From assembly GCF_000027125.1 (NCBI RefSeq), contig NC_017626.1: a DNA stretch of 64,000 nt. One strand, 5' to 3'. The translations under genes were made by a program, and so were the position numbers. This stretch comes from Escherichia coli 042 (GTDB taxonomy: Bacteria; Pseudomonadota; Gammaproteobacteria; Enterobacterales; Enterobacteriaceae). Shown here one piece after another: positions 5,106-8,557 of the stretch; positions within the stretch are counted from its first letter, which is position 1, and every line of letters starts with the position of its first letter. The notes under the pieces are model-generated. The model was not told where the DNA came from, searched no databases, and saw nothing but the letters and a program-made list of their open reading frames with translations.

Positions 5106-6590
5106 TTATTCCTTATCCAGTCGTCCGACCAGACTCAGGTCGAAACTGGCACCCATGTATTTAAAATGCGGTCTGACAGAAATCGCGACCTGGTACCAGC
5201 CTGGCTCACCATCCACATCAAGTACCTCGATCTTCGCCTGACGTAATGGTCGGTGGCTGCGGACTTCGGCAGGCGGATTCTCCTGGTCGGCCACATACTG
5301 GCGAATCCAGGTGTTCAGCTCACGCTCCAGGTCACTGCGTTCTTTCCATGAGCCAAGCTGTTCGCGCTGAATTACCTTGATGTAATGCGCTAACCTACTG
5401 ATTACAAATAAGTATGGCAGCTGAGTGCCGAGTTTATAGTTGGTCTCCGCAGCCTTGCCTTCGGGGGTTTTGGGGAATTTTTTGGGTTTCTGCACCGAGT
5501 TGGCCGAGAAAAAGCACGCATTATCAGATCCTTTACGCATGGTCAGTGTGATAAAGCCTTCTTCCGCCAGCTCATACTCTCTCCGGTCAGTGATCAACAC
5601 TTCAGTCGGAATTTTTGCCTGCATTTGCCCCATGGATTCATACAGATGCACCGGGAGGTCTTTGACTGCGCCGCCGCTGGAAGGGCCAATGATATTGGGA
5701 CACCAGCGATATTTAGCAAAACTTTCAGCCAGGTTCGCAGCTAGTAAAAACGAGGTGTTCCCCCACAAATAAGACTCGTGACTCTGGCTGACGTCTTCAT
5801 GGTAACGGAAGGTCCTGGCTGGGTTCTCATCTGGCGAGTAAGGGTGACGCAGCAGGAACCGGGGGGCAGTCAGTCCCAGGTAGCGTGAATCTTCAGATTC
5901 ACGCAAGGCACGCCAGCGGGAATAGGCCGGGCCTTCAAAGATTGCTCCTGGTTCTTTGATCCCTGGTAACTCTGTCCATGAGTCCAGACCGAAAAATTCG
6001 GATGATACTGATGAGAGGAACGGGCTGTGCGCCATCGCACTGACCTGGCTGATATATTTCAGCAACTTCATATCCGGCGTGGTGTTCTTAAAGGCAAAGT
6101 TGCCGATTACCGCCGCCACTGGCTCACCGCCAAATTGTCCGTAACCGCTTGAATATACATGCTTGTAATACGCAGACTGCGTGATTTCAGGTGCAAATTC
6201 GAAATCATCCAGCAGTTCTTCCTGAGTGACATTCAGGAAATGGACCTTGATGTTTTCCCGTGTATCCGCGCGTTCAACCAGCAGCTTCAGCGAGCGCAGC
6301 AGGGATTCCAGTTCCTGAAACTCCGGGGCATGAATAATGGCATCCATCTGCCTGCTGGTTCGGGCATCAATATCAGCAATCATGGCGTCAACGGCCAGGA
6401 TATTGATAGGTTCAGCGCTACTGTCGCCCTGTAACATGGCGGCAATAAAGGCGCTCACGCCCTGGCGGGTGATATCGTAGCTTTCTGATTTAGGCTGGAC
6501 GCGGGTTTGCGCCATGATTTCATCAAGCAGAGATGGGGGCGCGGCGGTTTGCGACGCGCTGACGGGAGCAATATCTTCCTTTACTGACAT
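5106..6590 (-). CDS. tssC: T6SS contractile sheath large subunit TssC (VipB)
   Basis: 494-aa ORF following tssB; sheath large-subunit size and conserved character. Confidence 0.9.
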   Translation of the reverse strand: MSVKEDIAPVSASQTAAPPSLLDEIMAQTRVQPKSESYDITRQGVSAFIAAMLQGDSSAEPINILAVDAMIADIDARTSRQMDAIIHAPEFQELESLLRSLKLLVERADTRENIKVHFLNVTQEELLDDFEFAPEITQSAYYKHVYSSGYGQFGGEPVAAVIGNFAFKNTTPDMKLLKYISQVSAMAHSPFLSSVSSEFFGLDSWTELPGIKEPGAIFEGPAYSRWRALRESEDSRYLGLTAPRFLLRHPYSPDENPARTFRYHEDVSQSHESYLWGNTSFLLAANLAESFAKYRWCPNIIGPSSGGAVKDLPVHLYESMGQMQAKIPTEVLITDRREYELAEEGFITLTMRKGSDNACFFSANSVQKPKKFPKTPEGKAAETNYKLGTQLPYLFVISRLAHYIKVIQREQLGSWKERSDLERELNTWIRQYVADQENPPAEVRSHRPLRQAKIEVLDVDGEPGWYQVAISVRPHFKYMGASFDLSLVGRLDKE

Positions 6591-6612
6591 ACTGAAAATC
6601 CTTCTGTGAAAA

Positions 6613-7116
6613 TTATTTCTGAGCGGCGATACCCAGTTCTTGGATCAGCTGCTCGCGGCTGTCTTCGTTTTCCAGTAGCGCCTGAAGTTGTGCGCGGAAG
6701 GCCGGAATATTGCCTAGTGGAGACTTAAGTGCGACCAGAGCTTCACGCAATTCGAGCAGACGTTTTATTTCTGGTACCTGGCTGGCAATATGGTCCGGAG
6801 AAAGGTCATCCATAGATTTGACTTTCAGGTTGACGTACATTTGCTCATTGGGAGCGTCACTGAGTTCAGCCGGAACAACAAACTCCCGTTCAATGTCAGC
6901 TTCTGAAATGACTGCGTTGAGGTTATAGCGGTTGATAGCAATGGCAGTTCGCTCGTCCAACGGCGTGTTATCTGGTTTCCCTTTCAGATTGCCGGTGATC
7001 AATAAATTCAGCGGCAATTCGATATCAGCAGCCACCCCATCAACTTTTGGTGTATACCGAACGCTGATTCTTTCTTTCGGCGCGACACTGCCGCCATTGT
7101 TGTTCATTTTGCTCAT
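6613..7116 (-). CDS. tssB: T6SS contractile sheath small subunit TssB (VipA)
   Basis: 167-aa ORF, first gene of the minus-strand operon, divergent from hcp. Confidence 0.9.
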   Translation of the reverse strand: MSKMNNNGGSVAPKERISVRYTPKVDGVAADIELPLNLLITGNLKGKPDNTPLDERTAIAINRYNLNAVISEADIEREFVVPAELSDAPNEQMYVNLKVKSMDDLSPDHIASQVPEIKRLLELREALVALKSPLGNIPAFRAQLQALLENEDSREQLIQELGIAAQK

Positions 7117-7818
7117 AAAAATGTTCCCGTTCAGGCCATGAGCACAGCATTTTCGTACTGCATAAAAATACCGAAGATACCGTTTCAGTGGCAGTTAGAT
7201 AATGTAACCTTCCTTCTGTTGTGATCGGTATTCTACTCATGAAATAAAATATTAAAAGAACTATTTATATTTTAGAAAGAGATGTATTCTTCCTTGCTAA
7301 TATATTATAGTGAAATAAATTTTGGTATTTATAGACTTGATGAATATGATTTTACGGTCAATAAAATGCCATAATATATTGATTTATATGTATTTATTAA
7401 ATTTATTAATAAGTTTTATGTATGGTTTTATCAATTGATTAATTGCTGGCAATACATCATAAGGAATTCCTTTAAGGAATGTCTTAATTGCGTGCTGGAA
7501 CGATGGCTGAGTAAGTGTCGTAATAATTTGTTTTTGACGCGGCTGTGGATTTTTATGGGGGGAAGGATACGTTATGGATAATTCTGCTGTTGAAGTTGAT
7601 ATATTTTTAGCTTATGTGACCGTGTTCTGAAATTGACTAAAAATATATTTAAACACCATAAAAGAGTTTTTCAGTAGGTGCTAATTACGTGTGCCTGTAA
7701 CTCGAATAAAGAAAAGGGTGTGGTTCCTGATGTGAGCCGCATCACACTCTAACCCGTCGGGGATTAACGACGGGTTGTTCGTAAAACAGCAGTTGATAAT
7801 TTCACAAGGAGTTCATAA
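7117..7818. promoter_or_regulatory. AT-rich ~700 bp divergent control region between tssB and hcp
   Basis: No credible ORF; very low GC compared with flanking genes; contains a single GATC (about 7224) and the palindrome AAGGAATTCCTT (about 7463-7474); must hold promoters for both divergent operons. Confidence 0.5.
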
Positions 7819-8337
7819 ATGCCAACCCCATGTTACATTTCAATTACAGGTCAGACCCAGGGGAACATCACTGCCGGTGCTTTCACCGCAGATTCTGTCG
7901 GCAATATCTACGTGCAGGGACACGAAGATGAAATGCTGGTGCAGGAGTTTCTGCATAACGTTACTGTTCCAACCGATCCACAGTCTGGTCAACCTTCCGG
8001 GCAGCGCGCGCACAAACCGTTCATTTTCACCGTGGCGCTGAACAAAGCCGTTCCGCTGCTGTACAACGCGCTGGCCTCCGGTGAAATGCTGCCGAAAGTG
8101 GAGCTGCACTGGTGGCGTACTTCAGTTGAAGGCAAGCAGGAGCACTACTTCACCACACGTCTTACTGACGCGACGATTGTGGACATGAACCTGCACATGC
8201 CGCACTGCCAGGACCCTGCACAGCGTGAGTTTACGCAATTGCTCGCAGTATCACTGGCATACCGTAAGGTTGAGTGGGAGCACATCAAATCCGGTACTTC
8301 TGGTGCCGATGACTGGCGTGCACCGCTGGAAGCATAA
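7819..8337 (+). CDS. hcp: T6SS inner tube protein Hcp
   Basis: 172-aa ORF with Hcp-family character; RBS AAGGAG 8 nt upstream; strong terminator downstream. Confidence 0.9.
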   Translation: MPTPCYISITGQTQGNITAGAFTADSVGNIYVQGHEDEMLVQEFLHNVTVPTDPQSGQPSGQRAHKPFIFTVALNKAVPLLYNALASGEMLPKVELHWWRTSVEGKQEHYFTTRLTDATIVDMNLHMPHCQDPAQREFTQLLAVSLAYRKVEWEHIKSGTSGADDWRAPLEA

Positions 8338-8348
8338 ATCTGAGTCAA

Positions 8349-8385
8349 CAACATCCTGCCTTCGTGCAGGATGTTGTTTTTGTAC
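8349..8385 (+). terminator. Rho-independent terminator after hcp
   Basis: Stem ACAACATCCTGC / GCAGGATGTTGT with 6-nt loop followed by TTTTT. Confidence 0.6.
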
Positions 8386-8557
8386 GTGTAAAAAATGAGT
8401 GTCAGTAAGGAGTTACGCTTTCATGAGGGAGATGGCGGATGCCGGAAACCCGGGCGGTAGCGTACCTGAAAATGTAAAGATGAGTGTAACGCTGCACTGG
8501 CACCCTTTGCTGCATGGTAAGAATCATTTGGTCCGTGAATAAATCAGGGAGGTCATT

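Follow-up and report, generated by a model that had tools for sequence, protein, structure and literature searches.

The closest described relatives of the locus analysed here are the 'T6SS2' clusters of APEC TW-XM, APEC DE719 and NMEC RS218, in which vipA2 and hcp2B-vgrG2 form divergent operons, and the 't6sP' region of EHEC O157:H7 (z0264 tssB / z0265 hcp3). In the APEC TW-XM T6SS2, inactivation of hns was found to raise clpV2, hcp2A and hcp2B, and neither clpV2 nor hcp2B was regulated by iron or Fur (PMC5874247). The tssB-hcp spacer of EHEC has been described as an H-NS-repressed bidirectional promoter (PMC13141884; PMC5363993), and either replacing this spacer or deleting hns was still insufficient for full activity (PMC13141884). 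CsrA is reported to be a repressor of hcp3 and tssC in EHEC (Wang 2017, as cited in PMC13141884), and the spacer of S. sonnei was nearly silent in every condition tried (PMC10924462). In EAEC 042, a CRP target was assigned to EC042_0225 by ChIP-seq and EMSA, with CRP shifting the fragment strongly in the gel; the EC042_0224/0225 intergenic fragment was inactive as a promoter in K-12 whichever way it was oriented and whether or not CRP was present (PMC12360894).

The window, by which we mean the whole stretch of 64,000 nucleotides that was analysed, contains a non-coding spacer of 702 bp (7117-7818) which, according to the ORF map, is flanked by the divergent genes tssB on the minus strand and hcp on the plus strand. 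The control region of about 700 bp which the first-pass annotation had placed between these genes was found to have exactly these coordinates. The tssB gene (6613-7116, minus strand, with its ATG at 7116) encodes a VipA-family sheath subunit (Pfam PF05591 T6SS_VipA, E 1.2e-44) and is the first gene of the structural operon, an identification that is further supported by the PGAP annotation in strain 118UI. The hcp gene (7819-8337, plus strand, starting at 7819; Pfam PF05638 T6SS_HCP, E 1.5e-32) heads the hcp-vgrG effector arm. The minus-strand operon of strain 118UI consists of tssB-tssC-tssE-tssF-tssG-tagH-tssJ-tssK-tssL(icmH)-tssH-vasI and the plus-strand arm of hcp-vgrG-DUF4123.

The spacer was found in 552 of the 5426 complete E. 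coli genomes, with an identity of at least 99% in 174 of them and of 90-95% in another 353, and many chromosomes carry it with 100% identity. The window represents one of the two main E. coli alleles, which differ mostly in the AT-rich core. The primer hcp2Ex-F, designed for the T6SS2 of APEC DE719, matches exactly at 7822-7839, and the DE719 primers 'hcp1Ex-F' and 'Hcp1Mu-F' match the tssB start and leader exactly; judged by these sequence matches, the locus is therefore the aspV-island 'T6SS2' of ExPEC, APEC, NMEC, UPEC and EAEC. The DE719 paper names the genes differently, with tssB called 'hcp1' and hcp called 'hcp2'. The T6SS2 of APEC TW-XM, APEC DE719 and NMEC RS218 is thus the same locus as the one in the window, which differs from it by carrying the other main E. 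coli allele, and the hcp of the window would correspond to the hcp2B of TW-XM from its position beside vgrG. The spacers of APEC O1, UTI89 and APEC E19019 are approximately 92% identical to that of the window while their Hcp proteins are identical to it.

The EHEC counterpart occupies the same aspV island site and has the same divergent layout, with a spacer of 696 bp compared to 702 bp in the window, a GC content of 0.33 in both and Hcp proteins that are 94% identical. Both spacers have in common the blocks of the tssB leader (among them an invariant CAGGCCATGA), the two stem-loops upstream of hcp that are described below (HP1, and HP2 with its GGGATTAAC loop) and the TTTAAGGAATATCT box. In contrast, the TssB proteins are only 55% identical, the central parts of the spacers are unalignable (approximately 55% identity), and the right half-site of the CRP site has been lost in EHEC through a deletion of seven nucleotides. 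On these sequence grounds, the cluster of EHEC Sakai is a mosaic relative of the cluster in the window.

Five E. coli alleles were aligned with the spacers of E. whittamii and a Pseudocitrobacter MAG, these two being the only genomes beyond E. coli in which the scan of genome contigs found it, and three EHEC-type spacers were then added. Spacers from Escherichia, Pseudocitrobacter and the EHEC type all measure 694-705 bp, with centres that are only about 55% identical. Between the main E. coli alleles, the two ends are 97% (7117-7290) and 99% (7661-7818) identical and the stretch 7291-7560 is 84-86% identical, compared to about 98.5% for the tssB gene and complete identity for the Hcp protein. 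Against Pseudocitrobacter, the tssB-proximal module is 73% identical and the centre 54%. The alignments divide the spacer into two conserved gene-proximal modules with a fast-evolving (7291-7560), extremely AT-rich core between them.

The tssB-proximal module (7117-7290, minus strand) is delimited by the allele identity and by the blocks in common with the EHEC type, and carries the invariant CAGGCCATGA at 7132-7141. It is taken to comprise the tssB leader, and would probably also hold the core promoter. Conserved blocks exist in this leader, although an RNA structure was only weakly supported by RNAalifold with a covariation term of +0.56, and for this reason no tssB-leader structure is claimed. 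Two further conserved elements were found towards the centre. The box TTTAAGGAAT(A/G)TCT (7471-7484) adjoins a palindrome and is part of a conserved inverted repeat, ATTCCTTTAAGGAAT (7466-7480). Its exact 14-mer, TTTAAGGAATATCT, is common to the APEC O1-type and EHEC-type spacers at offsets of 357 and 362 from the tssB ATG, and a common word of this length was observed in 1.5% of the shuffles. A perfect inverted repeat with 12-bp arms (ATATATTTTTAG / CTAAAAATATAT) separated by 26 bp occupies 7599-7648; the E. coli alleles have retained it, and the EHEC type lacks it.

The much lower GC content that had been noted for the region is evident from the composition, with 0.330 in the spacer compared to 0.490 in tssB, 0.543 in hcp and 0.527 in the window as a whole. 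The GC content falls to 0.207 in the core (7230-7470), while the outer blocks are at 0.42 (7117-7229) and 0.43 (7661-7818), and the 300-bp stretches of lowest GC content in the whole 64 kb start at 7151-7251, within the spacer. The absence of coding potential also held. No RefSeq annotation lies beneath the spacer match among the genomes listed, none of the four longest mechanical ORFs (30-66 aa) has a Pfam hit, and each of the three among them that are confined to the spacer (30-48 aa) is broken by stops when read in the other E. coli allele. Spacer-encoded small proteins were consequently set aside as far as the ORFs of 30-66 aa are concerned, and an ORF of 18 aa was retained only as a low-probability uORF.

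The first-pass annotation had singled out one GATC near 7224 and a palindrome near 7463 as the only distinctive sites. Both are present, the GATC at 7223-7226 and the palindrome AAGGAATTCCTT at 7461-7472, and neither carries weight. One GATC compared to 2.0 expected from the base composition does not amount to a depletion, and the spacer sequence gives no sign of a methylation switch at this position, which has been conserved among Escherichia alleles of this type and has no overlapping Fur box. The palindrome is no more than would be expected by chance, as a perfect palindrome of at least 12 bp occurs in 29% of the dinucleotide shuffles of the spacer. It is also not conserved, being broken to AAGAAATTCCTT in UPEC132, APEC O1 and NCTC11151 (the 90-95% allele, which is the commoner one in E. 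coli) and in E. whittamii. The two sites are furthermore not the only distinctive ones, since the spacer also contains a perfect CRP core (7731-7746) and two strong hairpins (7717-7777).

The consensus sequences of Fur, H-NS, IHF, FNR, Fis, ArcA, PhoP, RcsB, OmpR, Lrp and CRP were matched against the spacer, and among these matches that of CRP alone stood out. The site TGTGAGCCGCATCACA (7731-7746), which overlaps the 3' arm of HP1, agrees with TGTGA-N6-TCACA at 16 of 16 positions, a score equalled by none of 300 shuffles, and is the only CRP site with at most one mismatch in the 64 kb. Its centre (7738.5) lies 80.5 bp upstream of the hcp ATG at 7819. Each of the five E. coli alleles examined has a perfect CRP core, E. 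whittamii and Pseudocitrobacter each depart from it at one position, and in the EHEC type, with roughly 2200 genomes, the 7-nt deletion removes its right half-site. The motif scan that had been proposed as a check was positive for CRP, and none of the Fur, H-NS and other consensus sequences stood out. The best H-NS match in the spacer, 8 of 10, was the same as in the shuffles and is uninformative. IHF was considered and dropped, as its two perfect cores (7429 and 7372) are at the chance level (12% of shuffles) and only the one at 7372 is conserved within Escherichia.

The CRP target reported for EC042_0225 of EAEC 042 consists of the identical 16-mer at the identical -80.5 distance from the translation start (PMC12360894). 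As this T6SS gene also has a divergent neighbour, EC042_0224, in the same layout as in the window, we infer that the whole locus is the EC042_0225 locus, on the grounds of sequence, distance, neighbour and chromosomal coordinate. The CRP site at hcp is thus genuine and already known from the literature; binding has been published for the identical sequence, and the regulatory effect is putative. The best -10-like hexamer on the 3' side of the site, GATAAT (7795-7800), would place CRP at approximately -68. Classical activating CRP sites are centred near -41.5, -61.5 or -71.5 from the start site, so that on the basis of this hexamer the site would not be at a canonical activating distance.

Promoters could not be named from the scan for sigma-70 sites, since the six candidates found compared to 3.5 +/- 2.0 expected are at the level of chance and the best candidates of our own sigma-70 PWM fall in the AT core. 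Several start sites have reportedly been mapped in the spacer of the EHEC homologue by Kim et al. in 2022. On the tssB strand of the window, a conserved -10-like TAGAAT (ATTCTA on the plus strand, 7230-7235) that lacks a -35 element, and that reads TAAAAT in EHEC, is the best candidate for a tssB promoter. A search of 6500-8500 with the Rfam covariance models gave only three hits at the chance level (E > 0.4).

By analogy with the related loci in which H-NS control has been described, the AT-rich core (7230-7470) is most likely an H-NS nucleation tract. H-NS would nucleate within approximately 7230-7560 and spread over both gene-proximal modules, which would leave both operons silent in the laboratory. 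CRP, bound close to hcp, may either help in anti-silencing or have no effect in vitro, and the tssB-proximal module would provide the tssB leader and probably a weak promoter of the -10-only kind that needs anti-silencing or an activator. Taken jointly, we consider it likely that a shared spacer silenced by H-NS, a CRP site, a structured hcp leader with CsrA and a weak tssB promoter together describe this control region. The original reading as a divergent T6SS control region of a type that nucleoid proteins silence is right and matches the published work on the same or sister loci, and the first-pass interpretation is partly supported in that sense.

Two other modes of control known from T6SS clusters were weighed against this H-NS-silenced arrangement. 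The promoter region of sci1 (T6SS-1) in EAEC likewise belongs to an E. coli T6SS and has a GATC close to the putative core promoter, and there a Fur box lies over the promoter and methylation of GATC locks the operon in the ON state. A comparable Fur/Dam epigenetic switch in the spacer would draw on the position of the GATC at 7223-7226, which is conserved in the Escherichia alleles and close to the conserved TAGAAT on the tssB strand. However, sci1 belongs to a different cluster type with a unidirectional operon, and the spacer of the window has neither a Fur box nor a cluster of GATC sites. The best Fur-like matches (12 of 19 positions to GATAATGATAATCATTATC, compared to a shuffle mean of 12.4) lie elsewhere, at 7336 and 7629, and 92% of the shuffles are at least as good, in agreement with the earlier failure to see a convincing Fur box by eye; the single GATC, unremarkable against the 2.0 expected, is outside both matches. 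With a GATC that has no associated Fur box, the sci1-type switch has no counterpart in this spacer. As clpV2 and hcp2B are also free of iron and fur control in APEC TW-XM (PMC5874247), and the literature on this cluster type describes no iron control where sci1 is under Fur/Dam control, a Fur/Dam switch is close to refuted. Sigma-54 clusters of Vibrio cholerae and Aeromonas encode a very similar Hcp, and this resemblance, together with that of the structural gene order to the V. cholerae vas cluster, would favour a sigma-54 promoter with an enhancer-binding protein driving hcp. Yet no match to TGGCAC-N5-TTGCW with three or fewer mismatches was found inside 7117-7818, and the annotated cluster has no vasH-like gene between tssH and vasI, so that we give this possibility almost no credence.

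Besides the CRP site, the feature of the spacer that had been overlooked is the hcp leader. In all lineages, the last 110 nt upstream of hcp form two neighbouring stem-loops. The first, HP1 (7717-7743, plus strand; arms 7717-7726 and 7734-7743), is formed by GGTGTGGTTCC and GAGCCGCATC, and the second, HP2 (7750-7777, plus strand; arms 7751-7759 and 7768-7776), by AACCCGTCG-GGGATTAA-CGACGGGTT with a GGA (7761-7763) in its loop, both being recovered in the MFE fold and by RNAalifold. In the hcp sense, 7712-7780 has a folding energy of -32.5 kcal/mol (z -4.95), which none of 200 shuffles equalled, compared to -21.7 kcal/mol (z -2.66) for the antisense strand. This difference is due to G-U pairs and is predicted by an RNA structure and not by a DNA palindrome.

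The comparative evidence points in the same direction. The alignment given to RNAalifold comprised seven sequences that represent five lineages: the window, APEC O1, E. whittamii, Pseudocitrobacter, two of the EHEC type and L019, the last being the single extra lineage obtained from look-ups of Hcp homologues. The same 18 pairs were predicted across all seven sequences with 96% of the cells paired, and the pairing dropped to 33-48% of the cells when the partners were slid by one to three columns. Five of the 18 pairs change on both sides, a number reached by only two of 500 shuffles. HP1 accounts for ten pairs with 95.7% of the cells paired, and HP2 for eight conserved pairs, four of them changed on both sides, with 96.4% of the cells paired. 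In the window the stem of HP2 pairs AACCCGTCG with CGACGGGTT; the corresponding arms are CCTGTC and GGCAGG in EHEC, AACCTATC and GATGGGTT in Pseudocitrobacter, and TTTGCCG and CGGCAGG in L019. The covariation comes from only five independent lineages, to which a pattern scan of metagenomes added none, its matches being either unrelated or E. coli alleles that had already been included. A two-hairpin RNA structure of the hcp leader is supported by the covariation together with the strand asymmetry, and HP1 and HP2 are predicted to be part of the hcp mRNA. HP1 and the CRP site which overlaps it are separable, as the pairing of HP1 persists in the EHEC type where the half-site is gone.

The inverted repeats in 7717-7777 could also act as DNA sites for dimeric proteins, with CRP on HP1 and another factor on HP2, in which case the RNA structure would be a by-product. 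CRP does bind the palindrome inside HP1 (PMC12360894), and in the window the arms of HP2 form a perfect 9-bp inverted repeat around an 8-bp spacer. The arms of both repeats, however, vary between the lineages and stay complementary by way of G-U intermediates that are mismatched on the opposite strand, and folding is much more favourable for the sense strand than for the antisense strand. The persistence of HP1 pairing in the EHEC type despite the deleted CRP right half-site also speaks against DNA sites, as does the lack of any regulator gene among the annotated genes of the cluster, and we regard this explanation as unlikely. A role for HP2 as a leader terminator or attenuator at which most transcripts would end ahead of hcp, or as the 3' end of a small RNA from the spacer, would fit its GC-rich stem of 9-10 bp and the tail behind it (TTGTTCGT in the window, TTTTTC in Pseudocitrobacter), and the conserved stretch 7561-7777 could be a transcript of approximately 110-200 nt. 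HP2 was nevertheless not flagged by the terminator scan and has no Rfam match, its U-tract is poor in the window and EHEC types, and no mutually exclusive anti-terminator pairing was seen. It also looks quite different from the real hcp terminator at 8348-8384, in which a 13-bp stem is followed by a T run, and termination at HP2 is accordingly rated as quite improbable.

The spacer might also encode a small protein, such as that of the 18-aa ORF at 7574-7630, which is preceded by AAGGA seven nucleotides upstream and whose start, stop and frame have been preserved in each of the six Escherichia sequences, E. whittamii among them. Against this, its substitutions run at about seven non-synonymous to one synonymous, Pseudocitrobacter lacks it, the EHEC type has nothing equivalent at this position, and the Shine-Dalgarno-like motif is weakened in strain 33E. 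The invariant C-terminal half of the ORF coincides with the 12-bp inverted repeat, so that the constraint may be at the level of the nucleotides, and we find a coding role for this ORF very doubtful.

The GGA motifs of the structured hcp leader point to a possible ligand. The GGA in the HP2 loop (GGGAUUAA) is kept in four of the five lineages; the exception is L019, in which the loop reads AAAAUAAC and the stem is kept without the GGA. This motif is presented in a loop of 8-10 nt, 47 nt upstream of the hcp Shine-Dalgarno sequence AAGGAG (7806-7811, plus strand), which contains the second GGA of the leader and is found in six of the seven leaders aligned (AAGGAA in L019). The more distant hcp leaders of C. 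koseri and Salmonella likewise have GGAUUA in a hairpin loop. RsmA binds T6SS mRNAs of P. aeruginosa, and a GGA in a hairpin loop combined with one in the Shine-Dalgarno sequence is the arrangement of leaders controlled by CsrA or RsmA; the likeness of the window to these leaders is known from its sequence, and L019 departs from it by lacking the loop GGA. The loop GGA thus suggests CsrA, a dimer of which would clamp the leader through the GGA of HP2 and that of the Shine-Dalgarno sequence and repress the translation of hcp, while the 5' stem-loops may stabilise the hcp mRNA once transcription is allowed.

As a finding from a genome scan the region is ordinary and largely known, because the region itself, the control by H-NS and the CRP site have already been published, with H-NS dependence, the absence of Fur control and the CRP site all on record for this locus or its sister. 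The two-hairpin leader is a modest new detail, and no mention of a conserved, GGA-presenting hcp leader with two hairpins was found in the literature searched. The open practical problem is the laboratory silence of the widespread E. coli T6SS-2, for which neither promoter swapping nor hns deletion restores full activity in EHEC and S. sonnei. For the ExPEC/EAEC allele, the present map sets out the conserved parts, a validated CRP site and a leader that could explain post-transcriptional blocks, and it can guide what to retain or drop in the spacer when the locus is re-engineered. We put forward as a tentative proposal, one which we hold to be possible and not probable, that the leader is a conserved cis-regulatory RNA, so far undescribed, of the E. 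coli T6SS-2 family, present in approximately half of the complete E. coli genomes, which couples Hcp synthesis to CsrA by means of the hairpin with the GGA loop and the Shine-Dalgarno sequence. If this is true, carbon status would be sensed on two levels in the same place, through cAMP-CRP on the DNA, which also serves as a CRP site, and through CsrA on the RNA.

The T6SS cluster of the window and the sister cluster on the aspV island of EHEC Sakai (L005) were compared over the tssB-spacer-hcp segment (window 6613-8337 against L005 22938-24653). The clusters are mosaic: identity is 94% for Hcp but only 55% for TssB, which places the change from the well-conserved arm to the divergent one inside or beside the spacer. 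Despite the mosaic arms, the spacer has a length of 694-705 bp in all lineages. Between the two main E. coli alleles, the window type and the APEC O1-type, divergence reaches about 15% in the AT core (7291-7560), against about 1.5% in tssB and none in the Hcp protein. This pattern suggests either relaxed constraint on the spacer centre or recombination that replaces alleles there.

The centres of the APEC O1-type (L007) and EHEC-type (L005) spacers are unalignable except for a common 14-mer, TTTAAGGAATATCT, located at a nearly equal offset from tssB (357 and 362 nt respectively). The window allele of this 14-mer (7471-7484) carries a single change and reads TTTAAGGAATGTCT.

Nearer to hcp, a perfect 12-bp inverted repeat was found with arms at 7599-7610 (ATATATTTTTAG) and 7637-7648 (CTAAAAATATAT), where the 26 bp between the arms enclose a TTGACT hexamer. 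The repeat is kept in the E. coli alleles and missing from the EHEC type. An 18-aa ORF, MDNSAVEVDIFLAYVTVF, lies at 7574-7630 and is preceded by AAGGA 7 nt upstream. The frame is intact in all six Escherichia sequences (6/6) and nearly all of the substitutions are non-synonymous; the ORF could be a uORF or a chance occurrence.

Directly past the hcp stop codon, a strong terminator-like hairpin is present at 8348-8384 (AACAACATCCTGC-CTTCGT-GCAGGATGTTGTT and then a T run), with a folding energy of -21.2 kcal/mol and a z of -3.3; it was not detected by a simple terminator scan. Its counterpart in EHEC is 'h3R region I', the element responsible there for uncoupling hcp3 from vgrG3. In 118UI, the identical strain, the region downstream of hcp (L001 13442-22231) contains a vgrG that RefSeq flags as incomplete. 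Beyond the effector arm lie ISAs1-family fragments into which a group II intron (ltrA) is inserted, and the arm thus appears eroded in this strain.

On the tssB side, the primers 'hcp1Ex-F' and 'Hcp1Mu-F' designed for the T6SS2 of APEC DE719 (PMC4224132) match the start and leader of the tssB/VipA gene (window 6613-7161, minus strand), as this gene is assigned by both Pfam and PGAP. Therefore, going by the primer matches, 'Hcp1' of that paper would seem to be the small subunit of the sheath, and the real Hcp-fold gene is its 'hcp2'. According to the paper, RS218 behaves alike.

Among more distant hcp leaders, those of Citrobacter koseri (L010) and Salmonella enterica (L014) also have a hairpin about 105 nt before the ATG whose loop presents GGAUUA, and both contain a second AUGGAUAA motif, which hints that GGA-presenting leaders are common in this Hcp clade. 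In a further lineage (L019; GCA_003382705.1, CP031282.1, 1176-1288), both leader stem-loops, HP1 and HP2, are retained with differing stems, the HP2 loop is AAAAUAAC without GGA, and the Shine-Dalgarno sequence is AAGGAA. This leader provides a natural test case for the proposed CsrA control.
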